A stretch of 64,000 nt of DNA from Patescibacteria group bacterium. Its GTDB lineage: Bacteria; Patescibacteriota; Patescibacteriia; UBA10025; JAHIVO01. The notes under the pieces are model-generated. The model saw nothing but the letters and a program-made list of their open reading frames with translations. It had not been told where the DNA came from and did not search any database. The first letter of the stretch is position 1; each line of letters begins with the position of its first letter. Both the position numbers and the translations under genes were made by a program. Shown one piece after another: positions 11,200-58,188 of this stretch. Location: positions 43,694 to 107,693 of the forward strand of contig JBAZKE010000001.1 in assembly GCA_041650915.1 (NCBI GenBank), given 5' to 3'.

Positions 11200-11208
11200 T
11201 TTTACGAT

Positions 11209-18226: not shown

Positions 18227-19258
18227 ATGCAAAAACAAGTTAAAAAAACGGATCCGGCGAGCAGCGGAAAACGGCGAGCAGCCGAGGAGGCGATCGCGCA
18301 GATTCGGGAGCGTTTTGGGGATGGCTCAATCATGAAACTCGGTGAGGCGACGAGGATGGAGGTTGACGTGGTGCCTACCGGGTGCCTCTCACTCGACCTT
18401 GCGCTCGGGGTAGGCGGCGTGCCGCGCGGGCGGATTATTGAGATATACGGACCGGAGGCTTCCGGCAAGACGACGCTCGCCCAGCACATCGTCGCGTCTG
18501 TCCAGCGGCTCGGGGGGACGGCAGCTTTTGTGGATGCGGAGCACGCTCTTGACCCAACCTATGCTAAAAAGATCGGCGTCAACGTTGATGACCTCCTCAT
18601 CTCACAGCCCGATACCGGGGAGCAGGCGCTCGAGATAACCGAGACGCTCGTTCGTTCGAATGGCGTTGATGTCGTTGTGATTGATTCTGTCGCGGCGCTT
18701 ACGCCTAAGGCCGAGATTGAGGGTGACATGGGCGACTCGCACATGGGGCTGCAGGCCCGGCTCATGAGCCAGGCGCTTCGTAAGCTCGCGAGCATTGTAT
18801 CGAAAACCAAGACGGTCGTGATTTTTATCAACCAGACACGCATGAAGATTGGAGTCTTCTTCGGCAATCCGGAAACGACAACGGGCGGCATGGCCCTCAA
18901 GTTTTATGCGTCGGTCCGGGTTGAGGTCAGGCGTGCGGCGCAGATCAAGAAGGGAGAGCAGTCAATCGGCAACCGCGTCAAGTGTAAGATCGTGAAGAAC
19001 AAGGTAGCGCCTCCTTTCCGGACCTGTGAGTTCGATATCATGTACAATGAGGGCATCTCTATCGCAGGTGACGTGCTTGATGCCGGCGTTCTCCATAAGG
19101 TCATACAGAAGAGCGGCAATTCGTTTTCATACGGTGAGGTTAAGCTCGGCGTCGGGCATGAGACGGCGCGCCAGTATCTGCGGCAGAATCCGAAGGTCGT
19201 CGAGGACATCAAGAAACGCGTCACCGAGGCAGTCCGTCAAGAAGAGCGCGAGGAGTAG
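18227..19258 (+). CDS. recA: recombinase RecA
   Basis: 343 aa. Walker [13 protein letters not shown]1/L2 loops and canonical RecA conservation. GGGGAG RBS at 18212-18217. Confidence 0.95.
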
Positions 19259-48200: not shown

Positions 48201-50383
48201 CCGAGAACTCTACGGTCACGTTTGACGGCACGAGCGGCACGGCGGATCTGATAACCGACCCTGCTTGCACAGACTGCAATCTTGATACGCTTGTTGTCAA
48301 TGACGGCGGAGGCGGGTTATTGACCGTTGAGGTTGAAGACGCGCTTGATGCAGCACACGTCACGATAACGAGCGGCACGCTTGATGCGGTCGCGCTGGAG
48401 AGCAATGCCATCAACGTTTCCGGGAATTGGGTCAACGATGACACGTTTGAAGCGCGAAATGGCACGGTGACGTTTGCAGCAACGGACGGGGATAACAGGA
48501 TCGAGAGCGGCATATCGCCTTTTTACAATGTTGATTTTAACGGAGCGGACGGCGCATGGACCTTGTATGAGCCGCTGGACGTCAACGGCACGTTTGACCT
48601 GACGCAAGGCACGTTTGTCCAGGGAACGGATTATAATCTCAACGTTGCCGGTGATTTCACGCTTGCGAATGGCACGACGTTTACCAAAGACACTGGCACC
48701 GGTCTTGTTATTTTCGACGGCGACCTGACATTTACGGACAGCAATGGGACCAAACAGGATATCGGAAGCGTAGAAATCGGAATGTCGCCTGATACTACGG
48801 AACTCGCGTCTGATATGTCAGCGACCACGCTTAATGTCAATAATAATGATATCCTGAATACCAATGGATATGACCTGAATATCGGCACGGGCGGGGTTAC
48901 TATTAAAAATGGCGGCGTTATCAACGCTCTTGATGACGTTGAGACGGATGAAACGATGATCAATACTGAGGGTGACTTTGAGATTAGTTCGGGTGGCGAC
49001 TTTAATTACGACCAGTCAACGATAATTTTTGACGCAGGATCAGGCACTGATGACCTTATTACCGACGGATCGGGCGATAACTATGCGGTGTACAATCTGC
49101 AGTTAAATGATGCCGGTGGCAGCTTGACTGTTGAGGTTGAGGATGATGTTGTTATCAAGGGCAATGTTACGGTTACTGCCGGCACGCTTGATGTTAAGAC
49201 GGAGAATAATGCCATTACCGTCGGCGGCAGCTGGACTAACGCAGACACCTTTACTGCGCGCGGCGGTACGGTAACATTTGATGGCGCTTCCGGCAGCGCT
49301 GGCACGTTTGACATTGATTCTACCGGTGCGACAACCGATGACTTTTACCACCTGGCTTTCAACGACGCTGGTGACGGCGATACGTTCCAGCTCGAATCAG
49401 CACTCGACGTAAACGGTAATCTCACCATCACCGGAGGCACGCTGGATACCAAGTCAGGGGAGGATAATGGCATTACGGCAGCAGGCAATTGGACCAATGA
49501 TGATACGTTTACAGCAAATAGCGGGACGGTAACGCTTGACGGCACGGGGCAGCAGGCGCTCTCCGGGCAGATGACGGGCGTATCAGACCGGTTTTACGAC
49601 CTCACGGTCACAAACACCGGCGTATCGAATCCCGACGTTATCTTCGCCGCTTCTGCCGAAACAGCGCATACGTTTACCGCGGGTACGGCAGGATCACAGG
49701 TGCAGTTCGACGACGCCGGGACGTATACGTTCCAGAATATCGATCTCGACGGCCAGGACCCCGCGACGCGCATTGTCCTGACGAGCGATTCCGCAGGCAC
49801 CCAGTGGGATATTAACGTCGCTGGCACGAGGAGCGTGTACAGCACCGATGTGCAGGACTCGAACGCGTGCGGCCAGCCGCCTGATATCAATGCCACACAC
49901 ATATCGAATAAGGATTCAGGCAATACGGACTGTTGGGACTTCACGGCAATTACCTTCACGATCAGCAGCAATGCGATCGACCTTGGCACGCTTTCAACCG
50001 GCTCTGTCAGTACGACGAGCCATACCGTCAGGACGGTCACGAGCGCAGATAGCGGCTACACGACGCTCGTCTACGACGACGGCAACCTCAGGAAGGGTTC
50101 CGACGATATCAACGACGTGGCTGACGGTGCCGTGACGGCAGGTTCGGAAGAGTACGGCCTCTCGACCACGGACAGCAGCCAGGACATTGCCCAGGATGCG
50201 GCCTGCGGCAGCGCTCCGTACACCGCATCCGCACTCACCGCGACCCAGCAGTCAGTCGCAGGAGCTGCCTCCGGTCCGGTGGATGAAACGATCACGGTCT
50301 GCTATGCAGCCTCGATCGACGTGAATACGATTTCGGGATCGTACGTTCATACCGTCACGTATATAACGGTAGGCCAGTTTTAA
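21248..50383 (+). CDS. giant (up to 9,711 aa) membrane-anchored, Thr/Gly/Asn/Asp-rich repetitive surface fibre / adhesin-like protein
   Basis: Single uninterrupted 29.1-kb ORF. Start is uncertain: GTG 21248, ATG 21479 (preceded by AAAGAGG) or ATG 21608. Parts in order: in-frame HTH (aa ~28-78), long hydrophobic anchor (aa ~125-152), acidic PE-rich linker, Ig-like domains, HxH tail-collar-like repeats, beta-helix-like GGT/NGT repeat arrays organised into ~8 super-repeats, and a C-terminal ~140-aa domain shared with the next gene. Confidence 0.9.
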   Translation: MALSKPFKRAGQFLGGNKNKQGIDFNALPELLTLDQVSEILGVHPNTLRNWDRSGKFAALRVGPRKDRRYEKEAVYRMHLEMKPAVHAADREVDGRKPEPSDNKYVIHPGFSWNKLRLYFMSRRFSIFVYSVGLVAFTFVVMQVTFFAYVFLVRAEEKPPLVARLAPSAVTGWQGAEKAKTIDALGTAPLDDFSIYNSAVFYNGSEPIVVEEEEAAGTAEPAQEAPAEPAVVTPQDTEPEPEEQAPTEEPQAPADVPAEEAEEPVDASAMPAEEGEAPAVEEGLPAEAGVDGGAATDAAVPATEEAVTDESDATVVKGMVLGEETDAADEPLSEQNPVLEARSFAVPEAIPAGTQISDARLLLSFAADTYPDNEDVITFSYSVDGSSWTVLDSQGLISDMSNGTHEGYWSFSIPELHVIDEIADLIVRVEYHAVAPVEMSTAYLDGIELDLTLEEPDAVAAEIIESVEIENDVLDTGEDPTINVHIEEESPLSFLGASSRQRTVKDVRLQDPNGREIEAVYTIADEQQGSVKTAAYTFDTGAFSKPGKYTVTLEVEQNGTVEEVEQDFTWGVLAINPDYAIQKLGQETQFSIGVLDDSGDIVCDAEVTLEIVDPAGHAVTQSTVDGRITVSDSCLTKGVYQGPDYYSTYTPQMPGTYQLHLTATHYNGTRTLDSEFAVEANPRFTVKRTGPTRIFPYVYQPMLLEVTAYEDFTGEITEIVPGVFEIEVHNDGAIRPFDQGGHIDHQIVWKASLKAGESATFGYSFKTPEESPALYMAGPAAVGTVWDEGRQWQMAIDATYVYLLSSSNSAPAGWSYVDTYNSKYVRGASSFSGTGGGAATHTHTYSESVTDSSVNTAGIVCSRRCLSVAGLGHTHTSTGSTIGPENNDPAHYTYRLWKYDTADATPMTIPQNAFIFWKDNSADPSSPWTRFSSGDDRMVKLADSHTTGGSTTHKHTITWGSLNATTGTNIEGILGDIYTMTSATHTHTAPTSSYTSEETLLPEYVTLDIWQQPDATPQAIVTGTVAMFDGTLPTGWTAISNGSPYQNRLVRGSTTAGSQAGSATHGHDDTEGTTGGASAQVKPGEGLDVLTAAENHTHGIRLADFSSGDQTPPYVDFVLAECTTCAITTITAGGIAYQENESTPIDGTSDNKTITLLVNGANTACGGGACTDTIDDDTGAWSISNITSSSGDIITVYLDDETEEATTVFVSDDTTQSNVDLYQNAVVVRHDTGASITNANLLTGDGGDDDIKYSVTGGALSVDTGFELHVWAGDTYDPGGAVTTQGTGGDVHVDDNATMYIDTIDSRITNNIMIDSGAALTVQVNSQVDGGAAGGVTVAGTLNASGGTFTVGDGTDEVVYVDSGTVNVDGGILTIKDDLYNNSAGGTEDINISSGTVNVGDDFRVESTADVDVTGGTVNVTGMLDVNGGTFDTSGSSDVNVTEILDQDGGTVTFGGTSTVDFGGVANAVNDGALNQTGGTVTFGNSTDEDLYANAGATITLSGGTTEIKDDFFLPSVTGSATVSNTVNMTAGSNETIDLDGGTLTVYEGADINCDYRLDVRAASIVDLNGGSLDTGNYWLIYDGTLNLDGGDHNIGTSGYLYFLPNATSITFNQTGGQITTYRLFVGNGAGTMYTPTVTGGTINIGTAAGTKDIYFTEAGDYKFYNVTIEENAVFNTSSTNSLKLAGSFTINNGKTFGANAEAIQIEGDNAGSPTGGFINEGTFTYGTSTVTMLNGEIKGSPDVMLTWSSFYNLNIGDATTSNTIDVGGSNNFWVQNAFAITSGDALSIGSGLYAGHSGPTFTLDGTVSGDGTLAFDSASPGPGTGGTLSANVRYDTTAGNIAAATFDARTYGGDVDIYLGELVIGAKSAIAGAGTLAIGGGLTLTDESAEGLSLDMNTNDPTTTVAGSVTVCATCTLSAPSTVSDTAFIVNGSWANSGTFTANGGQVTLDGSATQTLSGTMSGASSFANLKIRDASARTVDFEAQAITTGTYTIENDTNATTVQYENVADSAPFTFADISWGQAGTNGITFAGESGSSEWHLKVTDASQAVSYVSVSWSDASVTDGLEIAASDGTNTDGNNNTNWDFGFTISGTSTSFGTVKVAVNTTVQTDSAVISGGTWQITADADPISGDVITAYIDGVDDSLEAVGVTKYDGTGTISGMVLNGYEVWFGSTSDTPSLTLTDLENWDYDNDEDVFFSVASSTLEMNGDSAHSLNVLQIMDNATLTLSTGQTLNVTELFVRSDVTDGHLTMSGSPIINVKELFNNAGDYNASTETVNMANTMIGYITAAGASDSDIYNLNISPTSGLLTVSLNSALVVNNALTVTAGTFAVDENLNVNGAENALTVSGGTLSHTAGTLTVGNSTNEDLYITSGVVTTSGGNLVVTDDIRHAGGTVNINDGSNVDVTGQYTNDLAGSPILNLNGGSMDCQSHILLDRGTVNLNGGVHRAGVAVTDGIIEMNRNSTKSEHFYFNMTGGELHGRAIVIYDNKTLHTDTVSGGQLWVDNISEITATEEFYQWNTDSPTFWSLVLNEDDARINSTSQITDLNGDLIINSSMGLYQQGREIKVAGNWTHNGTTYSHGNGTVHMDGVDSTGSINGTTASTFYNLYLEDNTSLSNGNVTVEYVLLLLGGIDFSIGSGRTATVTSAGGMTGLTGSTVSGDGTLIFQAPTLTGPAPAIDSLLRMDAVDTDQSIESGPTRNFGSTVEFYNSGASSRTITIGSGADQTFNFYGDATSTVTGGGTLSVRQDTYNPIVNIVGDFTIGASSTYIASATGALNLSGSYTNTGAFTHSSGTVTLNGTALQTLSGTMTGASSFNSLTITNAYGSVSGCDTLFSPGVSFGTSATIAGTYTITTAGVNVRYNSGSTYTVNNINWQGGAGDEIIFRNSNLTSGTWLLAVSGTQTNVSYVNAARSDASSGDVIDASNGTNTDCDNNTNWDFYAGILVTGTLGFSPAAGTVKVAVDGDVQTDGYDVTGGSPWEVYTDAELAGDETVTVFIDGAETADESTAITGYDGSGDITGMVLNQHVLTAGSADNHTLVVDDFSTYWNTDDEDVMHGIFLGMETMTLYVDNSQYTDERLHIVSGTTVRLTSNSGDLENLNTFNITIDGTLDITGTATAQIDVYGNWDNNGAFNSNTSYTIFRATSGSFTIDSTGASASAFYRLTLGGVSGSATFTLESPLVVNNNLMINYGTLDTKSGENNSITVGGTWTNYDTFTANTGSVTFTGTGSINGDHDTTFYDLTIGDGTDGTMTVNGTDDPTVTHNIDIDAGDILSIGSDRTVTYTYDANSFTLDGTISGAGRLVYKSSDAFPATGTISTIVRFDATDVIWQNTGGRTYGNTVEIYHNSDALPKLIYLAGSGATVINGDLLFMTGASASLDMTVSNTNNYDVDIAGSLSVSKSGSGDITFDAGTAAYTVGDDVNFTNAAVTLEAGSLVEMTGAEDGTGTLTSAGTTLQDVTLSGGTITLADATHTISGSLDMTGAAVTAGTSTVLMNGAVASLYGGGNALNNLTLSSDSTTTLYSDIDIDGVLDITASDTLDIYVGIFATLTHYAELTFNGTISGIGGYLVYQSSTQFPAAGGTFGSMLNVRFDANYVNMVIPGRNYGTGIFELYNTGATNKTIYLGTGTGQTFSQTEEVNIVRTGAGSLLVDADFYDPTVTFGYMTIGAGTTYLSANSHTFTCFYDCDNQGTFTHNDGTVAVGTSGMNLAGDWTGSSALYNLTTDKNLDFDGAVTVANTFTIDNGSNTVDVEFEPGATYTFANIVWGQAGTNAVTMHGETSSAWNLKVTDEYSSQQVSYVTVSYSNACVSGGQNIDATDGTNNNNGNNSCWDFSDSMDISGTADGNAGELVKLAVNGVRTTEVGNIITGAPNTWTIANVGTINSGDVVTVWIENTIGNISDTDESSGITKYDGSGDVTGMALDTHVLTVGSADNPSFVRDDFLLYYNDDDEDIMHGKDETPDCKDGICPTDLNSDIDNVYSDDLFRVLSGATVTLSADADDYYDVLDAHDVTNEGTIVTTTTGLTPKLQISGSWNNTVAATFTSSLEQFTFDSSSAGETITTGGDPVYSLFFMGTGSWSNADALTVNNGLYVQNTGTFNVTGNDVTVKGASGMHISDGTVAISSGIVTVGDSTDEDLILDGGTLNASGGTLIVQDDLITTAAGNAEDINVTGGVLTVNGSLDINDGTVDFGPGASGAIDVNVSDCMHQTAGAVTVGTGSYAVDVDIDNGEFTSACTSLTHGYEITGGTLTIDTNADVAITDAYYFQTGGTFNLDGGSIAMAGPAGYSFEFSGGTFNLDGGTVDADDDKDYYVNLSDTGPVTFNMYSGDIYTSAFYVQNNYTTTTLNPALGGTIHISGPESGGSKFYQYSDDSPHFYNLSIEKGIVGYPVSFQSGGQNETILDGDFTILNADDYFRPWGQAIAIKGDYTNNGTCYSCNSSTFTFDGTAGQALSGNLNGTSMLDAVIIENSGGTVDIDNYLRANSLTIDNSGGTVDIEWESDADGTNYHEFADIVWGQAGANAITFTKETSANSQWYLKVTDTSQQVSYVAVADSNACVSGGQTIMADDGTSVDNDNNDCWDFGLVIISGTAPSYIDGTTIKVAVDDEEQAGKTGSVTSEAWTIEDVLVPDGAIVTVWVDGAGEITESTAVTEHIGDGDITGMVLNINVITLGSTSDAATLTANNLAQWQNGDNEDVMHSVLSDIGGGQTMYSDYSSEYTDDTFRILTGTTLTINSGTGEPTWEDALIVDNLILDGSLTMSGGYSPQVEIWGDWDNNGDFNTDGSETVQFRAAETGHTIDHTGSSDSDIQQLTFNGSGGRWTVLHPSTWVINGDMTMSNGIADIATNMRVDGGDVTGNGVVNAFAGSFEVTGAGNFGGDSAWVFNDLTFSGNTYTTTAAGSGSITVGNVLTIGSGHALNAGSKTWILSDTGTPLIIAGTLTPSSSTFRYTGAGATTVFDASYYNLEVIPGADSVTHTLSSDLLSGVISVANNMVIGGSHLACTVSGALYMTNLDVGNNVTINIGTAFVAPSAAASFTVGGSWSNSDTFTHSSGTVTFDANTTGKTIQSNSNNWNNVTFNNASGGWSFSDTTTLAGDLTVTAGTLSGTVDIDVQGGDLKGDGTVTMTAGTVNLINDGTIGTSSGSNDWTFYDLNLGQTGCAANTTTTANAGTGAIIITNTFTYDACSCGEECARYHRVHPGARTWRLTGTGTPLESGIINVGNIGTSVFQFTGTGSAVAVAGYYFYDLELIPGSATDYSFSAPTLYAIGHDLTINVNAAGNFDPGSAYVEMGGATGTLDVNGADIQELRTDLGTSNAITVASDAMISYRFVIFDAGDVLSVSSGATVTHTGATANILGGTISGDGLLTFTNTSTGPSTGGTVTADVRFDATDGDITSSTFDTRTYGGDLELYSAHSSGRTITPAAGTLTVGGNLNTTSTTSTLAAAFNTNNPTTLIGTIDNALTGDVSICATCTLSAPGSLTLYGDYQNSGTFTHNNGTVTLGAPGIVQAQAMYGAMTGASAFYNLTVENDFEANGPSFVNDSEVSNTYTITTPAVLVYYDTGTTHTYNNVNWNGQAAGSRIRLVGTDTWNLEVSGTQSVSYVDASYSNACGGDVIDADNGTNNNGGNNSCWDFIQGVEIDGIAYAENESTPLGIGRDVTLLVNGEENSCSFTPCTGSTDGVGGYAIADVDVLSGDVVTVYLDDASEEATMVYISNGTAQTNIDLYQNAVIARADTGSITNANLSTGDGGDDDIKYAVAGNNATFDSGFELHVWTGDTYDPGGQIITQGAGGDLHVDDSALAYVDTASSAIAGSVSIDTGGTVTMQSGTWTIAGDMTVTGTFNGTGDTVVNGGDMTGTGSVSLTGGSVTMAAGGSIDLGGTDTFSTLIINNGDATTTVVGSLNISGGLEVSAGDTLANSTGTMKLNTSTATLALAGTISGSGTLVYQSGVAFPTGGTLSMNVIFDPHLTSQSMSARTYGGDVKINDIAGNPSSNRTVTMLAGSYTIIGQLWMVEDTMRIITLDAATNDPTVQINGDLTGSGTSSNLTLHMGAGTWTVGDDVNLTHMDVDVETGGELELTGSTDSILSASATDIFYDLTMSGSDVEFGPVGEGWSAIAVSHDLSLTGTLDAKLATVQMVGAGGSIIGGGNTLYKLKIDPDPDGTVTLTTSDLTISNSISTPLEVTDSGDILSIESGRVLTVTGATTTEISGVGSITGDGTLRFDHNSGGPGTTLGTLGVAVRYDATLGDIAPETFDARTYGGDVEVYAGTGLIERVVTAPSSGTFAFEKALTTTCSSCNLLTLGFDGVTDPTVTIDGALTIGATTGLSAPSSVDFTLNGGYTNSGSFYDNSGTIVLGGSAIQTLDGTMTGVSDFNNLTITNASAAGIVFAKAATISGTYTITTADVKVTYLAGAAYTVTDINWDGQDAGTRIEFVSSTPDTQWNLNVSGTQTDVSYVNVTDSNACAGDEIVANNGTNYNGGNNDCWLFGIHISGTSNTTGTVKAAINTSLEPDSDLIAEGTWDIETSTVPVVNDVITVFIDEAEESGESSAVTRYDGSGSLTGVVLDANVLSIGSDNSIYVRLDDFVYTRSLDEDLMFDLSTGECSSRTLTIDAVGQYTDETLSILGGSQLYLLSYFNDGGPCNRYDTVNTHNIDISGYLSETGDRESTINVSGSWANSGTSTSGIGGTQGGFESGNSVVNFTAPSGTETINSSAAISGGGLRAFDDIVFNDSSGSATYLLKSDLDANHDITITGGTLDAESGVNHDIYVGGVWNNDDTFEARWGKVIFDGAGTFMLYAGSSWFYDLEFNNVGGLWDFDEDAVTAGNDVVVTVGILETEVDITIKGGDLTGDGTVTFNGGTLTMEQTGTIGTASGSNNWTLYNVTYGLGGQCTLDYTTTANGGAGTITVAGQMQGSACSCGGECFKVHRLDPGARTWIFSGTGLSGAADKIPLVDSTFINNGGTSTARFTATTGPGYVVQVSDNDYYNLEMLPAESEDYEWSSDTGIYGIYHDLTINSNAAANFDEKQAVLRLYGTDQTIDANGADLYDVGTWTDGVQAVSIASDVTITSRFLELYSGNTITIADGATMTVSGAQTNIIADGAVLTSVGTGMLRFLPGTTGPGTTGTLSANVRYDATDGDIASGTIDARTYGNRVEVYSGSSSADRTVTIASGTYTLSGASSHLHLLANGDNNVTLAGATNNPTVTIGGNVDFAGTGGGSEIITSGTGTWTVSGNVDFTGGTYTATSGNTLIMNGTGTPSITSASNSLYNFQTSGTGTITPQDNLTAANDITLGNGTTVSSAHDITANGGDLTTTGGTGTGVLTHTAGTVSISGTGNVGGNSAWTVQNLTFSQAVCADYTTTATGTGTITVNGTLLTDDCTSGETEYHKLAAGSKTWILTGTTPFTNDGGLDGGTSLFRFTTAGPATIPLGNVGGSTGYYTLELKPSGSSPTYTFAAGADFNINNNLVIGDGTNSVTVSGTANNPTLDIAGSVSCTAGASTNTVATGTGTWHVATNADLSECDSWTATSGHTLDMDGAGQITAAGKTLYNFQSSGMGVVSYSAMDVNGTFTVATGSNFEQADEDNINVAGNFTIQASSTFLAAEGAGMLILDGDLTFTDSTVGLQDLGDVQVGTSPDTTNLASDMKANSLTVATGDFFYTNGYDLDLGTGGLTVDGTFDAADDVETDETLITTNGDVRFSAPATFGQDQSTIEFDGSSGTDVLLTSAKPIYNLVIDGGANLLVELGSALDADGSITINVGELDVTAAPYAITLGGSWINADTFTARTGTVTIDGSSAVGTFDINSTGATAASFYNLILNDAGGGDTFELESALDVDNDLTITGGTLDTKNGSNWGISVGGDWTNADIFTARAGIVTFNATDTGHTINSGSSQFFSVVFDGASGSWSPLTNNITITGTLTMTNGTFDTSAGTANVTVRSHVQCGATCGTINMASTNTFTVQALFTATINFGTNVAVATDWTFYNLTLHSTSSGTIRFNGTGTGETNVLNNLSVTGTGFDTTVDVNTNDRIIDANNVSLSADAVFQASNSAAFTVSGNWSNSGTFTSNSGTVTFDGADSSTQAFTGDTTFGSFTATTADNSAGRTLQFAGSSTTAVSGTWTVTGASGKVLTLQSSDTNNWTINPTAASVTYVSVSRSTNAGASFCATYSNDGGNNVNWAISTGAQCQVISGTIYSDISSAEYDCTTPYTVKLRVNGSGTYSTECTNTPTMGYFEFNNVASTSGDVITLYLDNEEYEGTTVMVTDGTIQTDVDIYWDNTIVRADTGSITNANLATGDDGDDDVKYNVATNNVTYDSSFGLYVWDGDTYDPGGTIALSNADVWVGPSATLYFDTATNTPGNNMSVMTGATVHVDAATTFANGIDVMGSVIGTGDLTLTIGSMVSSNGIGTVTMTGGTVTLGGGGTFQSSSADWTFHDLYLAQPPACSVPATCTEITCAKVTNASGTGGVTISGTVTSDICSPPMPSENTYAHQLDAAVGNPKVWTFNGDSGDASPYVPITSVYMENVETHESTFAFTSIDSNGVSMPLNSMDFYNLSINPASATDYNFEAPAYRLWNDLFIHPNANVISGSTVMAFACDDCEINAGGTTFGDVEVYYSDKNVSVTTTGTDFSIAGRLWMATGISYTTDLVIGEGRTVTMENGSTVNLGTTSTVGGAGTWEFLPGSSGPDDVGTVNSVVRYNASSDNIANTTFDPRTYGNNVEIYSESSAGDRSVAFAAGTYTLSGANADFTIESAGTSNLSLANSAGTVNMAIGGDLGFTKGSTGTPSVTTGAGTWAVSGDVDLSNGTFTASSGHTLELDAAADGTGLITSAGNTLMNFLASGSDLVGSTDALDADGTFGVSETADFAQAADNNLNVAGNFTIASGATFNKASGSGTLIFDSNTDFTDSSSPLQDLGSVTISGLVDLLSNMKEESLAISGTLRQDGYDLDVGGGITVQSGANLWPVAGAGGDPAINLEGSLTIEDAAVFNSENSTVTFDGTSGTADLITDPACTDCNLDTLVVNDGGGGLLTVEVEDALDAAHVTITSGTLDAVALESNAINVSGNWVNDDTFEARNGTVTFAATDGDNRIESGISPFYNVDFNGADGAWTLYEPLDVNGTFDLTQGTFVQGTDYNLNVAGDFTLANGTTFTKDTGTGLVIFDGDLTFTDSNGTKQDIGSVEIGMSPDTTELASDMSATTLNVNNNDILNTNGYDLNIGTGGVTIKNGGVINALDDVETDETMINTEGDFEISSGGDFNYDQSTIIFDAGSGTDDLITDGSGDNYAVYNLQLNDAGGSLTVEVEDDVVIKGNVTVTAGTLDVKTENNAITVGGSWTNADTFTARGGTVTFDGASGSAGTFDIDSTGATTDDFYHLAFNDAGDGDTFQLESALDVNGNLTITGGTLDTKSGEDNGITAAGNWTNDDTFTANSGTVTLDGTGQQALSGQMTGVSDRFYDLTVTNTGVSNPDVIFAASAETAHTFTAGTAGSQVQFDDAGTYTFQNIDLDGQDPATRIVLTSDSAGTQWDINVAGTRSVYSTDVQDSNACGQPPDINATHISNKDSGNTDCWDFTAITFTISSNAIDLGTLSTGSVSTTSHTVRTVTSADSGYTTLVYDDGNLRKGSDDINDVADGAVTAGSEEYGLSTTDSSQDIAQDAACGSAPYTASALTATQQSVAGAASGPVDETITVCYAASIDVNTISGSYVHTVTYITVGQF
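27290..49945 (+). repeat. protein-level tandem super-repeats (~2.3-3.1 kb period, ~8 copies) within giant CDS
   Basis: Each unit ends with ...NI.W.GQ.AG..I.F......W.L.VSGTQ..VSYV.V..SNAC...I.A.DGTN..GNN.CWDF. The W/C-WDF codons are at ~27.50, 30.07, 32.74, 34.99, 38.14, 40.70, 45.76 and 49.94 kb. Divergent at nucleotide level. Confidence 0.6.
50051..50317 (+). repeat. 267-nt perfect direct repeat, copy 1 (3' end of giant CDS)
   Basis: Identical nucleotide string to 51244..51510 (offset 1193 nt). Antisense ORFs 50071..50295 and 51264..51488 translate to identical 74-aa peptides, confirming identity. Confidence 0.9.
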
Positions 50384-50393
50384 TGGTTTCCTC

Positions 50394-50422
50394 TTGTTTT
50401 TACCGACGAACTGTGTTATAAT
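50394..50422 (+). promoter_or_regulatory. candidate promoter for the 345-aa gene / downstream operon (TTGTTT-17-TGtTATAAT)
   Basis: Perfect -10 TATAAT at 50417-50422 with extended TGt and a weak -35, in the 155-nt AT-rich gap after the giant gene. Confidence 0.35.
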
Positions 50423-50538
50423 AGGTAATGTAAAGTAGAAAGCGGCTGTTTATATTTTTTTAAAGAGGAAAAGATTTTTCATTTTTGTGTTGGCATCTTT
50501 CGACATATAAAATTATTTATTAAAGTTACGAAAAGCCT

Positions 50539-51576
50539 ATGAAAGTACTAAAAAACACTAGTGTGGTGGTGTTGATGGCGGCATTTATCGCTGTCATGCT
50601 CTTTCCGGTCCAGGCAGCATACGCGGGTACCCTCACCACACCGCGCGATTACCTGAACAGGGTTAAGGAGAGTTTAACCTCCGGTGTGCAGCACGAGGTG
50701 TTCTTCACTACCGAGGGGGCAGTTTCAGGAGGAGCAGGGAACAACGAGATTACGCTCGTCTTCCCGGATGCGGATGACGGCGGCTGGTGCGCCACCGCAG
50801 CAGCCGACATGACGGTCACCGGCATTACGGATCCGACAGGCGGTTCCGAGAGCGCAACGTCGCTCCCCGGCACACTCGTCGGTACGTGTACGCAGGGTGC
50901 AGGCGCTTCGAGCTACGACACCTTCACAATCACCGGGGTCAATGATCTCAGCTCGGCTACGAAGTACGGCGTCCGTATCGCGGATGGCACAACGGCAGAG
51001 CTCGGTACGCCGGCTGCGTCGACGACGGGTCTCATCACCATTACCACAAACAACGGCTCAACTGACGTTGACTCTGCATTTACGAGCGTCGATATCATCA
51101 GCGATGACCAGGTGGCTGTTTCCGCCGATGTCCCATCGAGCATTACTTTCACGCTCAGCGATACCACGATCGACCTTGGCACGCTCTCAACGGGCGCGGT
51201 CAGCACTTCGTCACATACCGTCCAGACCGTCACCAATGCGTCGAGCGGCTACACGACGCTCGTCTACGACGACGGCAACCTCAGGAAGGGTTCCGACGAT
51301 ATCAACGACGTGGCTGACGGTGCCGTGACGGCAGGTTCGGAAGAGTACGGCCTCTCGACCACGGACAGCAGCCAGGACATTGCCCAGGATGCGGCCTGCG
51401 GCAGCGCTCCGTACACCGCATCCGCACTCACCGCGACCCAGCAGTCAGTCGCAGGAGCTGCCTCCGGTCCGGTGGATGAAACGATCACGGTCTGCTATGC
51501 AGCCTCGATCAGCGCAAGCACGGTAGCGGGCGCATACGCGCATACGGTTACATACGTAACGGTCGGGTTATTCTAA
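50539..51576 (+). CDS. secreted 345-aa protein sharing the C-terminal ~140-aa domain of the giant protein (possible divergent WxL-like cell-surface domain)
   Basis: N-terminal signal peptide (MKVLKNTSVVVLMAAFIAVMLFPVQAAYAG). The C-terminal 140 aa are near-identical to the giant protein's C-terminus (IDLGTLSTGAVSTSSHTV...TVTYVTVGLF). Confidence 0.8.
   Translation: MKVLKNTSVVVLMAAFIAVMLFPVQAAYAGTLTTPRDYLNRVKESLTSGVQHEVFFTTEGAVSGGAGNNEITLVFPDADDGGWCATAAADMTVTGITDPTGGSESATSLPGTLVGTCTQGAGASSYDTFTITGVNDLSSATKYGVRIADGTTAELGTPAASTTGLITITTNNGSTDVDSAFTSVDIISDDQVAVSADVPSSITFTLSDTTIDLGTLSTGAVSTSSHTVQTVTNASSGYTTLVYDDGNLRKGSDDINDVADGAVTAGSEEYGLSTTDSSQDIAQDAACGSAPYTASALTATQQSVAGAASGPVDETITVCYAASISASTVAGAYAHTVTYVTVGLF
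51244..51510 (+). repeat. 267-nt perfect direct repeat, copy 2 (3' part of the 345-aa gene)
   Basis: See copy 1. Confidence 0.9.
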
Positions 51577-51610: not shown

Positions 51611-52558
51611 ATGGAGGGAGGGCAGGTAATAACAAATAATTTTCATACGACTATGAATTGGAGGACAACAATAACCCTATCGGCAGCCGTGCTCGTTGCG
51701 GCATTCATCGTGCCAATAGGCGCCGATGCGCTGACGCTTCAGCCGACGTTTCAGGAAATAACCCTGACGCCCGGCAAAACGACAACGACAGCCGTTGAGC
51801 TCGAGAACGAAACGCAGGAATCTATCGAGCTCACCTCAGAGGTAGCAACATTCTCTGCAAAGGATGAGACGGGCGAACCCGAGTTCAACTTTGATGCTCC
51901 CGAGACGGGGATTGTGGCGTGGACAACTGCGGAATCGGGCCCCTTCACGCTCGAGGCAGGCGCCACGGAAACGGTGATCGTCACGTTCGAGACGCCTCTC
52001 GATGCGGAACCAGGCGGCCACTACGTTGCGGTCTTCTTCAACCAACTCCTCGAGGCTGAGGAGCCCGGGCAGGTCAATATAGAGTCGAAGCTCGGCACCC
52101 TCTTCCTTGCAACGGTGACCGGTACGTACGCAGAGAAGGGCTCAATTGCAGAATTCAAAACCGCGGGTACGGCAACGAGCTATTCCGAGGGACCGGTGGA
52201 CTTTACGTTCCGGTACCAAAATACAGGCGACGTTCACCTCAAGCCGACTGGCACTATTACCGTCAAGAATATGCTCGGGGGCACAGTCGCTACGATACCA
52301 GTCAATCGTGAGGGCGGCGCAACGCTTCCCGGCAGCATTCGGGAGTATGACGTTGCGAGCTGGGCAGACCTCGGGAACGGATTCGGCAAGTATACGGTCA
52401 CGATTGACCTCTCCGCAGGGACAGTTTCGAACAGCATGACGCTGAGCTTCTGGGTGTTCACGACGGTCGGTACGGTTATTGCCGCCGCCATCGCCCTCGT
52501 TATCATTGTGCTCATCATTGTGCTGCTCCGGGCTACGACAAAGAAGAAGCCAGATTAG
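51611..52558 (+). CDS. tail-anchored cell-surface protein, paralog A (signal peptide + beta-rich ectodomain + C-terminal TM and basic tail)
   Basis: 315-aa ORF. The start is more likely ATG 51653 (MNWRTTITLSAAVLVAAFIVPIGADA signal peptide). Paralogous to the next gene (shared ...FSAKDETGEPEFNFDA...EPGGHYVAVFF...). C-terminal hydrophobic helix then KKKPD. Confidence 0.8.
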   Translation: MEGGQVITNNFHTTMNWRTTITLSAAVLVAAFIVPIGADALTLQPTFQEITLTPGKTTTTAVELENETQESIELTSEVATFSAKDETGEPEFNFDAPETGIVAWTTAESGPFTLEAGATETVIVTFETPLDAEPGGHYVAVFFNQLLEAEEPGQVNIESKLGTLFLATVTGTYAEKGSIAEFKTAGTATSYSEGPVDFTFRYQNTGDVHLKPTGTITVKNMLGGTVATIPVNREGGATLPGSIREYDVASWADLGNGFGKYTVTIDLSAGTVSNSMTLSFWVFTTVGTVIAAAIALVIIVLIIVLLRATTKKKPD

Positions 52559-52612: not shown

Positions 52613-53608
52613 ATGAAAAAGAAGCTACTATACATACTAGCATTCACCCTCGCGGTACTGTTTACCGCCAGTACGTTTCCCGCGCAGCGTGCGGACGCAA
52701 TCACCCTCATCCCGCCGATTCTTGAATTTGGCCTCATCCCCGGCGAGCCATCGAAGATAGCGATCAAGCTCTTCAATGAATCATCAAGTACCGTAGAGCT
52801 GTATACGGAAGCGCACAACTTCAGTGCCAAGGATGATACCGGACAGCCGCAGTTTGATTTCGAGAGCGATGCGGATGGCATAAGCTCCTGGATCGACATG
52901 GAGGAGGGCCCAATCATCATCGAGCCGAACGGCCGGTATGAGGTGCCGGTGACGATCAATCCGCCGTCAGAGGCGGATCCAGGCGGGCACTACGCAGCCG
53001 TTTTTTTCTCGACGACTCCACCCGAAGAGGGCCAGGTCAGGATTGCCTCGAAAGTCGGGACGCTCATCCTGGCAAAGGTTGCCGGTGACGTAGAGGAGGA
53101 CGGTTCGATCGTAGAGTTCGACGTTGTCGACGGCAAACGGTTTTTCAATCGCCTCCCCGCTGCATTTGAAGCGCGGTTTGAAAATACCGGCAATGTGCAC
53201 CTCCGGCCGGCTGGGACGATCGTTATCGAAAATTTTTTCGGACAGCAGACCGATGAGGTCGATTTCAATCCGAGCGGCGGTGCAACGCTTCCGGATACGA
53301 CGCGCCGGTATGAAGCAATATGGGAAAAGGGGCAGGTCGGCGATACTGCAGGCAACGTGTGGACGAGTTTTTGGAAAGAATACGTAAACGAGAAGAATAA
53401 TTTTGCGATCGGCAGGTATACGGCGGCGATCTCTATTGAAGCGGGCACTGACAACGGCGTTACGGATGCCGCTTCAGTCTCGTTTTGGATCTTTCCGTGG
53501 CGTGTCGTACTCGTTTGGGCGGTAGCCGCTGCACTCGCCGTTATACTGCTCATCTACTTCCTCAGGCGCTACAACGCTTGGATCGTCAAGAAAGCCCGGG
53601 GAAAATAA
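52613..53608 (+). CDS. tail-anchored cell-surface protein, paralog B
   Basis: 331 aa. Signal peptide MKKKLLYILAFTLAVLFTASTFPAQRADA. Shares FSAKDDTGQPQFDFES...DPGGHYAAVFF with paralog A. C-terminal TM then RRYNAWIVKKARGK. Confidence 0.8.
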   Translation: MKKKLLYILAFTLAVLFTASTFPAQRADAITLIPPILEFGLIPGEPSKIAIKLFNESSSTVELYTEAHNFSAKDDTGQPQFDFESDADGISSWIDMEEGPIIIEPNGRYEVPVTINPPSEADPGGHYAAVFFSTTPPEEGQVRIASKVGTLILAKVAGDVEEDGSIVEFDVVDGKRFFNRLPAAFEARFENTGNVHLRPAGTIVIENFFGQQTDEVDFNPSGGATLPDTTRRYEAIWEKGQVGDTAGNVWTSFWKEYVNEKNNFAIGRYTAAISIEAGTDNGVTDAASVSFWIFPWRVVLVWAVAAALAVILLIYFLRRYNAWIVKKARGK

Positions 53609-53621
53609 TACCCATACGAAC

Positions 53622-54521
53622 GTGCGTCGTTTTTTGAAACTGCGGACAGTATTAATCTGGGGTATCCCGTTGATCGTGCTGATCGCGGGATATTCTGTTG
53701 TGTGCGCGCAAGTTTCACGCCAGGTTACGGTAACGGCGACTGTTCCGGAGCAGCCGCCCCTCGAGCCGCCCGATACGACCGTTCAGTTCAGCGGCATAGC
53801 GTACCCATCCTCTACGGTAACGATTACGCAGGATTCGGTGCCGATATCCATCATTACCGCCACAGCCCAGGCGGGTTTTCAGGTATCCATTATTGTCGAT
53901 CCGGGCACCCATACGTTTACAGTGTACGGCATCGACGTGGACGGGGTTCAGGGGCGCGTATCCAGCTTTACGCTGCTCCTTTCGGAGGGCAGCACGACTA
54001 CCATCAGCGGAATTTTTCTCGGCCCGACGATTACGACTGACCAGACGACCATTACTTCGGGAGAGACCGTGACGCTCTCCGGTACGACGGCACCGGACAG
54101 CGAGGTGAACGTTACCCTGACTTCGCCTGCCGTCGGTGCGGCAGCCGGAGAGGCGAAGATTGCCGTGCACATTGCGAGCGCAGACGGTAACGGCCGCTGG
54201 CTGCAGCTCTTCAATGCTGATGACCTCGTCGAGGGCAGCCACTCCGCAAAGGCGCAGGCGACCGATCCGGTTACGAGTTCGGTTTCCGAGTTTAGCAATG
54301 AGGTTGTTTTTGAGGTGGTCGCAGCTGAAGAGCCTGATGCGTGTGCCGGCATGGCCCCCGGCGATATCAACTGTGACGGTTCAGTCAACTTAGTCGACTT
54401 CAGCATCCTGCTCTTCTACTGGAACGCGGCAAATCCGGCAAATCCGAGAGCTGATATCAATAGTGACGGTACCGTCGATATAATCGACTTCAGCATTATG
54501 CTCTACTATTGGACGGGATAA
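53622..54521 (+). CDS. secreted protein with Ig-like repeats and C-terminal dockerin (two Ca-binding EF-hand-like repeats)
   Basis: 299 aa from a GTG start. Signal peptide with a ...VVCAQ site. The C-terminus has two dockerin repeats, DINCDGSVNLVDFSILLFYW and DINSDGTVDIIDFSIMLYYW, with D/N at loop positions 1, 3, 5 and 12. Confidence 0.7.
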   Translation: MRRFLKLRTVLIWGIPLIVLIAGYSVVCAQVSRQVTVTATVPEQPPLEPPDTTVQFSGIAYPSSTVTITQDSVPISIITATAQAGFQVSIIVDPGTHTFTVYGIDVDGVQGRVSSFTLLLSEGSTTTISGIFLGPTITTDQTTITSGETVTLSGTTAPDSEVNVTLTSPAVGAAAGEAKIAVHIASADGNGRWLQLFNADDLVEGSHSAKAQATDPVTSSVSEFSNEVVFEVVAAEEPDACAGMAPGDINCDGSVNLVDFSILLFYWNAANPANPRADINSDGTVDIIDFSIMLYYWTG

Positions 54522-54525
54522 AACC

Positions 54526-55668
54526 ATGCATTTTTTACGGCATACAATTTTTCTATCAGTTTCAGTGCTGCTCGGAGCGGTTCTATTCGGGCAGTCTGCT
54601 GACGCTGCCGTGATTTCGTTCGATCCGTCGGGCGGGGAGCTTTCGCTGAATGAGGAATTTCTGGTAACCCTGCACCTCAACAGCGAACAGGAGGTTATCA
54701 ATGCAGTCGACATTACGCTCACGTATCCTGCTTCCGCACTCGAGGTCATTGATGTTTCTCGGGGAGGTTCTTTCCTGACGCTGTGGGTCGAGGATCCCGT
54801 CGTCGACGATACGGCGGGTACGATAACGTTTGCGGGGGGCATTCCGAATGGCAGCCTCGTCGCGGATGGCGTTATTGCGACTGTGATTTTCAGGTCGAAT
54901 GCGCCGGGAGGGGTAGAGATCGGCGTTGATACGGAAGCGACCAAGGTTTTGCTCAACGATGGGAGGGGAACCCAAGCGGCGCTGTCGGCGGAGCCAAGCG
55001 TTTTTACCATATCGTCGTTGTCGTTTGTGGCGATTACCTCACCGACGCATCCGGATGAGAATGCCTGGTACCGCGAGAATGATTTTACTGCAGAGTGGGC
55101 AACCACTGCCGGCGCTGAATACAGCTATACGGTGAGCGCCCGATCCGATACGGTGCCCGATGACAGCAGGGACATTACCGACGGCAGCGCTACCTTTTTC
55201 AGTTTGCCCGACGGCATCCACTATTTTATTCTGAAGGAGCGGCTTCCCCACAAGGATTGGCGCATCATCGGCAAGCGGCGCGTCATGGTTGATTCGACTC
55301 CGCCGCTGCCGTTCACCGCGGAAATCGTAAAGGAGCGCACGCTGTACGGCGGCAAGTCGATCGTCACCTTCACTGCCCAGGACTTCACATCCGGCATCGC
55401 ACGGTATGATATTGCTGAGAATGATGCGATAACGCAGGACGTAACCTCGCCGTACATACTCAAGGACCAGTCACTCAGCCAGGCGGTTATCCTCTGGGCC
55501 GTTGACCGCGCGGGCAATACAACAGAGTTCTCATTTGGCGGGCACGGCAGCACGCCGGGGGGAAGCTCTGGCGATCCTATTGATATTCTCGTATACGTAT
55601 TTGCCGGCTGCATGTTTCTGCTCCTCGTGCTGGTCGCGGTACGATGGCGAATAAAAAAGAAAGCGTAA
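54526..55668 (+). CDS. cohesin-domain protein with Ig/FN3-like second domain and C-terminal TM anchor
   Basis: 380 aa. Signal peptide. N-terminal ~140-aa cohesin-like module (VINAVDITLTYPASALEVIDVSRG...GTITFAGG...DGVIATVIFRS). Middle domain paralogous to the next protein. C-terminal hydrophobic helix + RIKKKA. Confidence 0.7.
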   Translation: MHFLRHTIFLSVSVLLGAVLFGQSADAAVISFDPSGGELSLNEEFLVTLHLNSEQEVINAVDITLTYPASALEVIDVSRGGSFLTLWVEDPVVDDTAGTITFAGGIPNGSLVADGVIATVIFRSNAPGGVEIGVDTEATKVLLNDGRGTQAALSAEPSVFTISSLSFVAITSPTHPDENAWYRENDFTAEWATTAGAEYSYTVSARSDTVPDDSRDITDGSATFFSLPDGIHYFILKERLPHKDWRIIGKRRVMVDSTPPLPFTAEIVKERTLYGGKSIVTFTAQDFTSGIARYDIAENDAITQDVTSPYILKDQSLSQAVILWAVDRAGNTTEFSFGGHGSTPGGSSGDPIDILVYVFAGCMFLLLVLVAVRWRIKKKA

Positions 55669-55677
55669 CATGGCACT

Positions 55678-58188
55678 ATGGTACGACGGCTCCTCGCAAT
55701 AAGCTTCATCTCCGCTATACTGCTGGTAGCCGTACCTGCAGCCGCCGATGCAGCATCGCTCTACCTCAGCCCATCGAGCGGAACGTACACGGTCGGCGGC
55801 AGCTTTAGCGTTACCGTCGCGGTAGATACCGGCGGCGTCGCGATCAATTCGGCGCAGGCGACTGTTTCGTTCCCGAATGATATCCTCGAGATTACCAGCG
55901 TCGGGCAAGCTGGCATCTTTACGCTGTGGCCGATCAGCCCGACGTACTCGAATGCGACCGGCACCGTATCGTTCGCAGGAGGCGTTCCGAATCCGGGCTA
56001 TACGGGTTCTGGCGGCACGATTATTACGGTTACGTTTGCAACAAAGGTAGCAGGCACTGCCACCGTCACGATGGGCTCGGCGAGCATTCTCGCAAACGAC
56101 GGGCTCGGGACAAATATCCTGACCGGCGCAAGCGGCGGGACCTATACGGTCAGAGCAGCAGCCGTGGAACCAGAGCCGGAACCTGAACCAGAGCCAGATT
56201 TACAGTTCCCTGAAGCGGTGACGATCACGTCATCCTCGCATCCGGAACAGTCACTGTGGTACTCAAACCGGGATCCGCAGTTCGCGTGGAACCGCCAGGA
56301 TGGCGTTGTCGGATTCAGCTATGCGCTCGATGATCAGGATGGCGGTACGGTTGACCAAGTCCGAGATACGACCGATACGACGGGCAGCTTCGCAGGAATT
56401 GGCGACGGCATTTGGTACTTTCACGTACGTGCGCAAAATAATGACGGATGGGGCCCCGTTGCACAGTATAAAATTCTTGTCGACGGCACTCCGCCGCTCC
56501 CGTTTGAGATTGAATTGCTCGACGGCAAGCAGACGGAGGATAGGACGCCCCAGGTGAGTTTTGAAGCCACCGATGAGCATTCGGGCGTGCACCACTATGT
56601 TTTAGTCATCAATAACGAACCGCCGATCAGCATCGATGTCGGCGCCACGGCACCGTACACTTTGCCGGAACTCGCCGAAGGCAAGCACGGCATAACGGTG
56701 TACGCATACGATTTTGCGTCAAACAGTACCGCGGCATTTGCTACCTTCACGATCGGGGAGCCTCCCGGTCCGGTTGTTGTTGACGATGGCGAGGAGGAGG
56801 CGGAGACCCCCGCTGCAGTTCGGGCTATCGACGATGCGTTAAGGTCGATTGAAGAGGCGCTCCCGCAATCAGTGAAGGAGCTTATTGGCAATATTGGAGA
56901 TGTCATCGGCAATTTACGGGACAATGCTACCGTCAGTACCATCGTCAATGACTTCGTCGAACCGGCGGTTGTCACGACGGCTATCGTTACTTCTGCCGGC
57001 CTCATCGCGACCGCGTCTGCATTCCAGATTACCAATCTCGCGTACCTCTTCCTCCGGTTCAGCTACTTCTGGGTTGCTCCGGTACACCTCGGCCGGCGCC
57101 GCAGGAGGCCGTGGGGGATCGTATTCGACAGTACGACGGGAATGCCGGTCGCCCGCGCTATCGTGCGGATATTTTCCCGGGAGTTTAATAAGCTCAAGGA
57201 GAGCCAAATTACAGACGAAGAGGGCCGCTTTGGGTTTCTTATCGAGCCGGATCAGTATTACCTTGCCGTTTCCCGCTCCGGCTATATTTTTCCTTCCCAT
57301 CTCCTGCGGAGCGTGGCAATCAGCCAGTATGAGGACATATACCGGGGCGACACCATCACGGTCACCAAGCAAAATATGGGTGGTCTCTCGATCAACGTGC
57401 CGATCGATCCGAACGTACGGACTGTTTCGCAGACACGTTTGCTGTGGCTGCGGGTGATCAACTTCCTCGGCTTTATGCTGGAGAAGTTCAGCTTACCGCT
57501 GCTTATTGCCGGTACGCTGCTGAGCTGGGTCACCCTCGTGCTGGAACCGAAGACGAGCAACTATGTCATTCTCCTCCTGTACGGTATTTTTATCTTCCTC
57601 AAGTATATGGTGCAGCAGCTGCTCGAGCGCTCATGGGGTTTTGTTGAGGATGACACCACCGGCGATCCCGTCGATCTCGCCATTATCCGCATCTACAATA
57701 CGGCATCCGGCCTCCTCATCGGTACCCGGGTCACGAACCAGCGGGGACAGTTTACCGCGCTCGTGCCTCCGGGGCAGTACTACATCGTAGCCGTGAAACC
57801 GGGGTACGAGGTGTTCAGGAGCAAACCGATGATGGTATCGAAGCGCAAAGGCCTCATCAGGCTCAGGGTTAAGCTCAAGCCGCAGACGAAGAAGCCGGAC
57901 ACGACCGTGGCGCTTGAGGAGGTCGTTACGCTCGAGGCGGCTGATACGACCGTATCCGAAGCGCCTGTATCACCGAAGAAACGGGGGAAGGGGCAGCAGC
58001 CTGTACAGGCGGAGGCAGAGGAACAGCCCGCAAAACCCTCCCGGAGCATGAAGAAAGAAACGGCTGCTCGGAGGGGAGCCCAGCCGCTGAAGAAACCGAC
58101 TAAGCGCCCGCCGGCGGGCAGCCCGCCGGGCACTCCAAAAACGCCGTCGGTTGACGACCTCGGTAATTTGGATAGCCAGGGCTCTTAG
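55678..58188 (+). CDS. cohesin-domain membrane protein with two CarboxypepD_reg-like (prealbumin-fold) domains interleaved with TM helices and a Lys-rich C-terminal tail
   Basis: 836 aa. Signal peptide. Cohesin-like module (VAINSAQATVSFPNDILEITSVGQAG...GTVSFAGG). Ig-like domain paralogous to the 380-aa protein. Two repeats of W G(I/F)V(F/E)D..TG.PV..A(I)(V/I)RI(F/Y)...G.....T...G.F......Y. Several hydrophobic helices. Basic/Pro-rich tail. Confidence 0.7.
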   Translation: MVRRLLAISFISAILLVAVPAAADAASLYLSPSSGTYTVGGSFSVTVAVDTGGVAINSAQATVSFPNDILEITSVGQAGIFTLWPISPTYSNATGTVSFAGGVPNPGYTGSGGTIITVTFATKVAGTATVTMGSASILANDGLGTNILTGASGGTYTVRAAAVEPEPEPEPEPDLQFPEAVTITSSSHPEQSLWYSNRDPQFAWNRQDGVVGFSYALDDQDGGTVDQVRDTTDTTGSFAGIGDGIWYFHVRAQNNDGWGPVAQYKILVDGTPPLPFEIELLDGKQTEDRTPQVSFEATDEHSGVHHYVLVINNEPPISIDVGATAPYTLPELAEGKHGITVYAYDFASNSTAAFATFTIGEPPGPVVVDDGEEEAETPAAVRAIDDALRSIEEALPQSVKELIGNIGDVIGNLRDNATVSTIVNDFVEPAVVTTAIVTSAGLIATASAFQITNLAYLFLRFSYFWVAPVHLGRRRRRPWGIVFDSTTGMPVARAIVRIFSREFNKLKESQITDEEGRFGFLIEPDQYYLAVSRSGYIFPSHLLRSVAISQYEDIYRGDTITVTKQNMGGLSINVPIDPNVRTVSQTRLLWLRVINFLGFMLEKFSLPLLIAGTLLSWVTLVLEPKTSNYVILLLYGIFIFLKYMVQQLLERSWGFVEDDTTGDPVDLAIIRIYNTASGLLIGTRVTNQRGQFTALVPPGQYYIVAVKPGYEVFRSKPMMVSKRKGLIRLRVKLKPQTKKPDTTVALEEVVTLEAADTTVSEAPVSPKKRGKGQQPVQAEAEEQPAKPSRSMKKETAARRGAQPLKKPTKRPPAGSPPGTPKTPSVDDLGNLDSQGS

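Follow-up and report, generated by a model that had tools for sequence, protein, structure and literature searches.

What does it mean that two adjacent genes of very different size share 267 nucleotides without a single difference, and what do these genes build? The question is raised by a 64,000-nt stretch of a Patescibacteria genome (GCA_041650915.1, contig JBAZKE010000001.1, positions 43,694 to 107,693; hereafter the window, with positions counted from its first base and features on the plus strand unless stated otherwise). Here, a giant gene encoding 9,711 amino acids (aa; 21248–50383), recognised from the list of open reading frames (ORFs), from Pfam hits and from orthologous giants in relatives, is followed by a gene for a 345-aa protein, the pilin (50539–51576), recognised from an AlphaFold2 (AF2) model, a match to the NCBIfam profile NF058581 and its homologues. 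We judge it likely that these genes form part of a conserved, Pam-like seven-gene surface-filament operon of a Kerfeldbacteria-like patescibacterium, and that the repeat arose by very recent gene conversion. Candidate phyla radiation (CPR) bacteria live attached to other microbes by means that are largely unknown, and the description of the Pam pilus dates from no earlier than 2026 and is confined to lineages of the Saccharibacteria type.

The 267-nt repeat and gene conversion

The two copies of the tract, at 50051–50317 in the giant gene and at 51244–51510 in the pilin gene, are the same base for base, and 267 nt is the longest exact run at their offset of 1,193 nt, which bears out the perfect direct repeat reported in the initial annotation of this DNA. 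The tract begins at codon phase 0 and, as was also first reported, encodes the same 89 residues in both proteins (aa 9602–9690 of the giant and aa 236–324 of the pilin). Around it, homology runs in register for ~439 nt, from ~49945 to the stop codons of the giant gene (50383) and of the pilin gene (51576), and self-BLAST of the window reports the pair as 425 nt at 88.7% identity; all other repeats in the 64 kb, including those internal to the giant gene, reach at most 76%. This homology corresponds to a C-terminal domain (CTD) of each protein (giant aa 9566–9711, 49943–50380; pilin aa 200–345), of which the window holds two copies, each within a complete gene. The identity of ~85% originally given for the rest of the domain is correct for the domain as a whole (86% by BLASTP) but not for the sequence beyond the tract, where the proteins are ~62% identical and 56 of the 172 aligned nucleotides are mismatched. 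Within the tract there are zero synonymous changes. If the 56 mismatches were scattered randomly among the 439 sites, the probability of at least 267 matches in a row would be no higher than 10^-23.8, and not one of 200,000 permutations of the mismatches gave a run of 267 or more.

In the pilin, the tract takes in most strands of the CTD and both cysteines of its CTD pair (C287 and C319), with the first two CTD strands and the last strand lying outside. Residues specific to one paralogue or the other are concentrated in three places: the N-terminal junction, a loop that reads TSAD in the giant and TNAS in the pilin, and the loop that precedes the last strand. The CTD of the giant is preceded by a junction specific to giants, CWDF, and homology with the pilin starts only at ITFT.

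Both proteins were then compared within and between related genomes, referred to by locus number (L001 and so on). Over the last 150 residues, giant and pilin from one genome are 84% identical in the window, 81% in L001 and 79% in L013, and orthologues from different genomes share 54–68% (giants) or 59–76% (pilins). When the alignment was split into centre and flanks at the boundaries of the window's tract, giant and pilin from the same genome were 100% identical over the protein centre in the window, 89% in L001, 85% in L013 and 80% in L012, with 73% in L011 and 70% in L002; orthologues of the window proteins share 57–76% over the same centre. The flanks follow gene type: the window giant is closest to other giants (68–70%), the window pilin is closest to other pilins (70–75%), and the two window proteins resemble one another at 62%. 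In the nucleotide sequences, identity over the central tract is complete in the window, ~93% in L001, ~90% in L015–L017 and ~88% in L013, and it is not raised in L002, L011 or L012. An indel (GGGGC..YDADP) is common to both L001 copies and absent elsewhere. L014 has two tandem pilin genes; its giant resembles one of these pilins in the centre, and the pilins resemble each other at the 3' end. A further conversion tract is marked by the last ~70 nt of these two L014 genes (6969–9029 and 10075–11409 of that locus), which are ~93% identical where the genes as a whole share 65%.

These alignments show five lineages in which homogenisation within the genome, at differing times, has affected the centre of the domain and left its edges gene-specific. 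Recent gene conversion, proposed in the initial annotation for the window, thus proves to be recurrent: in five independent lineages, central identity is higher between the copies of one genome than between orthologues, the flanks go by gene type, and graded tracts occupy the same place in L001, L013 and L015–L017. Orthologous giants down to 35% identity (L014) also end in the domain with giant-specific edges. Because the domain is present with such edges in all lineages, it is ancient on the giant, and the identity of the copies therefore stems from repeated conversion and not from recent duplication. Internal tracts are to be expected, since homology stops at the domain edges, and selection is not required for this. 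It is strongly supported that the repeat was produced by very recent non-reciprocal homologous recombination between adjacent genes that share an ancient domain.

Concerted evolution is familiar from tufA/tufB. As in that pair, two functional genes are here kept alike by a non-reciprocal transfer of RecA type that leaves identical tracts in diverged genes; unlike in tuf, homogenisation is limited to an internal part of one domain, and the two proteins concerned differ widely in size and role. The graded conversion tracts offer a clean natural case of concerted evolution between pilus subunits that differ greatly in size.

The pilin, the giant protein and their operon

The definition of the Pam pilin family is due to Troman et al. 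(2026, bioRxiv 10.64898/2026.03.03.709456). In that work, PamA and PamB each comprise an N-terminal sandwich of nine strands, a linker strand that the following subunit receives, as seen by electron cryo-microscopy (cryo-EM), and a truncated immunoglobulin (Ig)-like CTD that accepts it; PamT consists of the acceptor domain only, PamC and PamD are PapD-like chaperones that end in membrane helices, and PamR, a membrane anchor, contributes a donor strand from its N-terminus. Giants, dockerin, cohesin and gene conversion go unmentioned there.

The window pilin carries a signal peptide, read from the sequence, with cleavage probably after A29, followed by a beta-sandwich as N-terminal domain, then the linker and, at the C-terminus, the pilin domain. 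Its AF2 model (predicted local distance difference test score, pLDDT, 92.7) has two beta domains, and its cysteines are paired (C84/C117 and C287/C319). Residues 208–345 match NF058581 (CPR_Pam_pilin_C) over profile positions 3–148 of 148 (E=2.2e-11, 44.1 bits), and the CTD of the giant, an acceptor-type domain of the Pam pilin kind that BLASTP also relates to the pilin, matches it over positions 2–148 of 148 (E=4.3e-11, 43.1 bits). Because these scores lie under the curated cutoff of 55 bits, we regard the window pilin and the giant CTD as distant relatives of Pam; the giants of four relatives likewise match the profile with scores under the cutoff. Over its whole length (residues 1–345), the pilin aligns with Saccharibacteria proteins of 360–361 aa from L007 and L008 (30–31% identity, E 1e-17 and 2e-15, tblastn), which themselves exceed the cutoff (71.4 and 62.2 bits). 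These profile and alignment matches show that the CTDs of giant and pilin both match the C-terminal profile of Pam pilins and that the homology of the 345-aa protein to Saccharibacteria Pam pilins extends over its full length. Every named member among its 135 homologues is from Patescibacteria, and the nearest named relatives are Kerfeldbacteria.

Pfam has no model for the shared domain, and Pfam scans of the pilin, of the giant's C-terminus and of ~225-aa relatives were uninformative; a PDB sequence search with single sequences and with profiles A1 and A2 returned no relative, PamA and PamB being apparently not in the copy searched. Our own hidden Markov model (HMM) of the domain recovered neither the window giant nor the L002 giant among six-frame ORFs, and the NCBIfam scan of the last 200 aa matches both. 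A single-protein scan for related loci gave eight loci, and a library-wide search with the giant's domain gave 343 clusters at E <=1e-3. Among the best 150 of these 343, the end of the domain, where aligned, is the C-terminus of the protein (a few fragments and two-stretch hits aside), and the proteins fall into length classes of ~215–240, 330–370 and 500–930 aa, with 12 of the 150 longer than 1,000 aa. Since those 12 also end in the domain, large proteins with this C-terminus are a recurrent architecture. A family of ~225 aa (P0076, P0083, P0090 and P0099–P0117; alignment A2), widespread in CPR, combines a signal peptide and three S-x-N-Y-x-L repeats with the same CTD; it matches the PamT profile NF058579 weakly (E 1e-13 to 1e-18, far under the cutoff), and its repeat region corresponds to no known family.

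At its N-terminus, the giant has an HTH_17/MerR-like domain (aa 31–75; Pfam hits HTH_17 and MerR_1) and a single transmembrane segment (aa 125–152) with a basic stretch before it. The following ~9,400 aa are almost devoid of Pfam matches, with sub-threshold hits to Filamin, MG2 and PKD (PKD_4) near aa 506–662 only. In the N-terminal region (21248–21710), a possible signal-peptidase site (VRA↓EE) follows the transmembrane segment, and the HTH_17 hit was recorded on the L002 giant too. To go by these features, the DNA-binding domain would lie on the cytoplasmic side of a surface protein of megadalton size, and could be a cleaved, regulatory signal-anchor.

Between the giant and pilin genes lies an AT-rich spacer of 155 nt with a promoter-like site (50393–50422), noted from reading the sequence as a consensus match only: TTGTTT, an 18-nt gap and an extended -10 element, TGtTATAAT (50414–50422). 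The promoter scan did not report it because its -35 hexamer is weak. The site suggests that the pilin may be transcribed independently of the giant gene, and perhaps more strongly.

Downstream of the pilin lie two genes for putative membrane-anchored pilus chaperones. Chaperone 1 has 301 aa from its annotated start (51653–52558), within an ORF that opens at 51611 (315 aa), and comprises two beta domains; chaperone 2 (331 aa, 52613–53608) is its paralogue at 38% identity. The 315-aa and 331-aa proteins each have a signal peptide, ~250 extracellular residues and a C-terminal transmembrane helix. PF06030 (WxLIP_PGBD) is matched by 45 of the 55 members of this chaperone-like family, and the 315-aa family matches the EfmWxLIP1 structure. 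The family HMM finds homologues directly 3' of each pilin gene in the Saccharibacteria loci L007–L009 (E 1e-55 to 1e-91), and the homology with pam-type loci therefore holds at the level of the operon. As in pam operons, the pilin gene is thus followed by two genes for PapD/FimC-like proteins of WxLIP-like fold with a C-terminal transmembrane helix. No usher-like family was found among the operon proteins by the Pfam and NCBIfam scans; the same scans returned no RbmA-like protein, for which no fold search was made.

The next gene encodes a 299-aa protein (53622–54521) that has a signal peptide and Ig-like domains and ends in a type I dockerin (Pfam Dockerin_1, above the cutoff at E=6.4e-9). 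It is followed by a 380-aa cohesin protein (54526–55668; Pfam Cohesin, 26.6 bits against a cutoff of 24.1) with a transmembrane segment at aa 349–377, and by an 836-aa membrane protein (55678–58188), encoded by the final conserved gene of the cluster, which has a signal peptide, several transmembrane segments and two CarboxypepD_reg domains; its N-terminal region resembles, by eye only, the start of the cohesin protein. A cohesin-dockerin pair within a pilus operon (53622–58188) is unusual.

In six related genomes the order of genes is identical: giant, pilin, two chaperone-like proteins, dockerin protein, cohesin protein and CarboxypepD_reg protein. The giants of relatives, upstream of the pilin, measure 3,870 to >8,137 aa and carry HTH_17 wherever the N-terminus is present, and the proteins encoded after them measure ~345, ~310, ~333, ~300, ~377 and ~810 aa. 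In one relative, represented by three loci, an IS200/IS605-type Y1 transposase gene sits between the giant and pilin genes (L015 2651–3202, L016 7321–7881 and L017 3471–4031); L016 and L017 are identical over the compared region, the L015 transposase is slightly shorter (183 versus 186 aa), and apart from the insertion the operon seems intact. Pilin and chaperone-like genes of CPR type were also found on contigs of metagenome-assembled genomes (MAGs) assigned to Gammaproteobacteria (L004) and Pirellulales (L010), which are probably mis-binned CPR.

The window thus resembles Pam in encoding a secreted two-domain pilin (beta-sandwich, linker and Ig-like CTD, with paired cysteines) adjoined by PapD-like proteins with C-terminal membrane helices, in being CPR-restricted, and in that homologues of pilin and chaperone-like proteins sit in the pam-type loci of Saccharibacteria. 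It differs in its lineage, Kerfeldbacteria-like as opposed to Saccharimonadia or Microgenomatia, with scores under the curated cutoff; in an acceptor-only subunit of 3,900–9,700 aa in place of the small PamT; and, compared with PamR, in a donor-motif dockerin protein beside a membrane cohesin protein that carries the transmembrane helix. The locus is, in our judgement, a variant of the Pam system described in 2026, neither a new kind of system nor a switching device.

Proposed filament assembly and competing explanations

The linker of the pilin contains the motif DDQVAVSADVP (aa 189–199, 51103–51135), a candidate donor strand; DQVxVSATVP occurs between the two domains in all pilin orthologues. 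A related motif, QVTVTATVP (aa 34–42, nt 53721–53747), is found in the dockerin protein directly after the signal peptide, at or near the mature N-terminus, and is kept in six orthologues. The acceptor domain is missing from the dockerin protein. Conversely, it is present in the giants, which lack the DQVxVSATVP motif. In some relatives the dockerin protein bears a full N-terminal domain of the pilin, as in L014.

Acceptor-only, donor-plus-acceptor and donor-only proteins would together supply the three roles of a filament built by donor-strand exchange, namely end, shaft and terminator, and the distribution of motifs suggests that a filament is assembled in this way. The 345-aa pilin, with its donor linker and acceptor domain, would form the shaft. 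The dockerin protein would be the donor-only base adaptor, plugged into the membrane-anchored cohesin protein. Because it has an acceptor domain without the donor motif, the giant would be restricted to the acceptor-only end, and we propose that it serves as an end subunit, an adhesin of ~1 MDa. That this end is the distal tip is suggested by analogy with FimH, PapG and PamT. The CTDs of giant and pilin presumably share a donor strand and chaperones, and overwriting one with the other would therefore be tolerated. The full picture, which we put forward tentatively as slightly less than an even prospect, is of a Kerfeldbacteria-like CPR bacterium with a Pam-type filament that has a megadalton end subunit and a dockerin-cohesin base, and whose tip domain is repeatedly rewritten from the shaft gene by conversion, keeping tip, shaft and chaperones compatible. 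The locus suggests that the assembly logic of Pam reaches another CPR clade, that a Pam-type filament can bear a giant adhesin as its end subunit, and that a cohesin-dockerin joint can serve as a filament anchor; the donor-only, donor-plus-acceptor and acceptor-only pattern predicts a testable order of subunits.

Compared with the tip adhesins of chaperone-usher pili (FimH, PapG and CsuE), the system has no outer membrane and no usher, and the adhesive part measures ~9,500 aa. In Fim and Pap, the pilin domains of tip and shaft are highly diverged. In the window, the CTDs of giant and pilin are alike because of conversion.

Several points weigh against a Pam-like filament operon with a recently converted tip. 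No filament has been seen for this lineage, and both window proteins miss the curated NF058581 cutoff (44 and 43 versus 55 bits). The N-terminal transmembrane anchor of the giant has positive-inside flanks; if it is uncleaved, the giant is tethered by its N-terminus, which conflicts with a free distal tip, and the picture would need revision to, for example, a filament fixed at both ends or bridging cells. As regards conversion, the position of the tract is sufficiently explained by where homology ends, on mechanical grounds, and selection to keep the domains alike is at most a candidate factor; diagnostic residues give no direction of transfer, since only four central columns are informative and these disagree. 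An assembly effect could account for the last few percent of identity, although this is unlikely.

The most serious functional rival is WxL-like anchoring, in which the shared domain would be a non-polymerising module that keeps both the giant and the small protein on the envelope, bound by the membrane-anchored WxLIP-like proteins of 315 and 331 aa; gene conversion would stand and there would be no pilus. WxL clusters of Firmicutes also contain a small and a large protein that share a C-terminal domain, beside an Ig-fold transmembrane partner of DUF916-DUF3324-transmembrane architecture (Hassan et al. 2023, PMC10599100), and the chaperone-like family of the operon matches PF06030. WxL proteins are described as peptidoglycan-bound and not as polymerised. 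The domain shared here, however, contains no tryptophan and hence no dual Trp-x-Leu (WxL) motif, and no WxL family came up in Pfam scans of the pilin, of the PamT-like family or of the giant's C-terminus. The domain does match the Pam pilin profile, and the pilin shows homology along its entire length to Saccharibacteria pilins from a family known from cryo-EM to form filaments. The linker motif, common to pilin and dockerin protein and absent from giants, fits a donor-acceptor chain. We therefore regard anchoring without polymerisation as unlikely, and prefer the Pam-like filament.

The initial annotation had raised the possibility of C-terminus switching. In a programmed or antigenic-variation system of this kind, the small gene would act as a cassette whose sequence reaches the end of the giant gene by copying or recombination and changes its tip. 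The direct repeats lie 1,193 nt apart with recA (18227–19258) in the same window, and the CTD of the giant has repeatedly been rewritten by conversion. The sole partner copy, however, is a complete, conserved, secreted protein with a promoter-like site and a family of >130 members, not a silent cassette. Conversion, moreover, makes the copies alike and generates no diversity, and a comparison with pilE/pilS in Neisseria, an example of antigenic variation, finds here no bank of silent cassettes. Neither a site-specific recombinase nor an invertase or reverse transcriptase was found among the window ORFs of at least 150 aa scanned against Pfam, and gene order is constant in all relatives examined. 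Switching was accordingly not upheld, and we think it very improbable. The related suggestion that recombination might delete the intervening DNA holds to the extent that RecA-mediated deletion is physically possible, and would remove the pilin's N-terminal domain and promoter; such a deletion was seen in no relative examined.

The initial annotation fairly called the repeat an assembly hazard, and the perfect identity could be an artefact if a short-read assembler had collapsed or mis-threaded similar paralogous segments. The source is a MAG, and 267 nt exceeds typical k-mers and reads; an exact lookup of the window pilin gave no second assembly, and a 42-nt core of the repeat was unmatched in a scan of metagenome contigs. 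Against this, each copy has flanks diagnostic of the gene it lies in: the tail of the giant, SIDVNTISGSYVHTVTYITVGQF, matches the tails of the L001 and L015 giants, and that of the pilin matches pilin orthologues. The pattern of high centre and low flanks recurs at 88–93% identity in assemblies from other groups and methods, including a single-cell genome, an ENA metagenome and three identically assembled JGI samples, and the contig (679,916 bp) runs unbroken through the repeat. An artefact is hence hardly to be expected, and for annotators and assemblers the locus carries the warning that a perfect internal repeat is here biological.

The remaining proposals, with nothing more specific in their favour than the repeat itself, have next to no probability: recent duplication of the domain onto the giant was rejected because orthologous giants as distant as that of L014 already end in it, selection alone because selection on protein cannot erase all synonymous differences over 89 codons, and a template/variable repeat pair of a diversity-generating retroelement because the flank mismatches are not adenine-specific and no reverse transcriptase was found among the window ORFs of at least 150 aa scanned against Pfam.

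Flanking genes

The operon lies among chromosomal housekeeping genes. Upstream are metK, a Mur ligase gene, rpoB, rpoC, ftsK, recA and plsX; downstream are genes for a racemase, iPGM and PGM. Two further genes of the window are unrelated to the repeat. The first (17512–18180) encodes a 222-aa protein that combines a RodZ-like HTH_25 domain with a Glucodextran_B domain. The second, on the minus strand (62541–63785), encodes a 414-aa protein with a weak bactofilin match.

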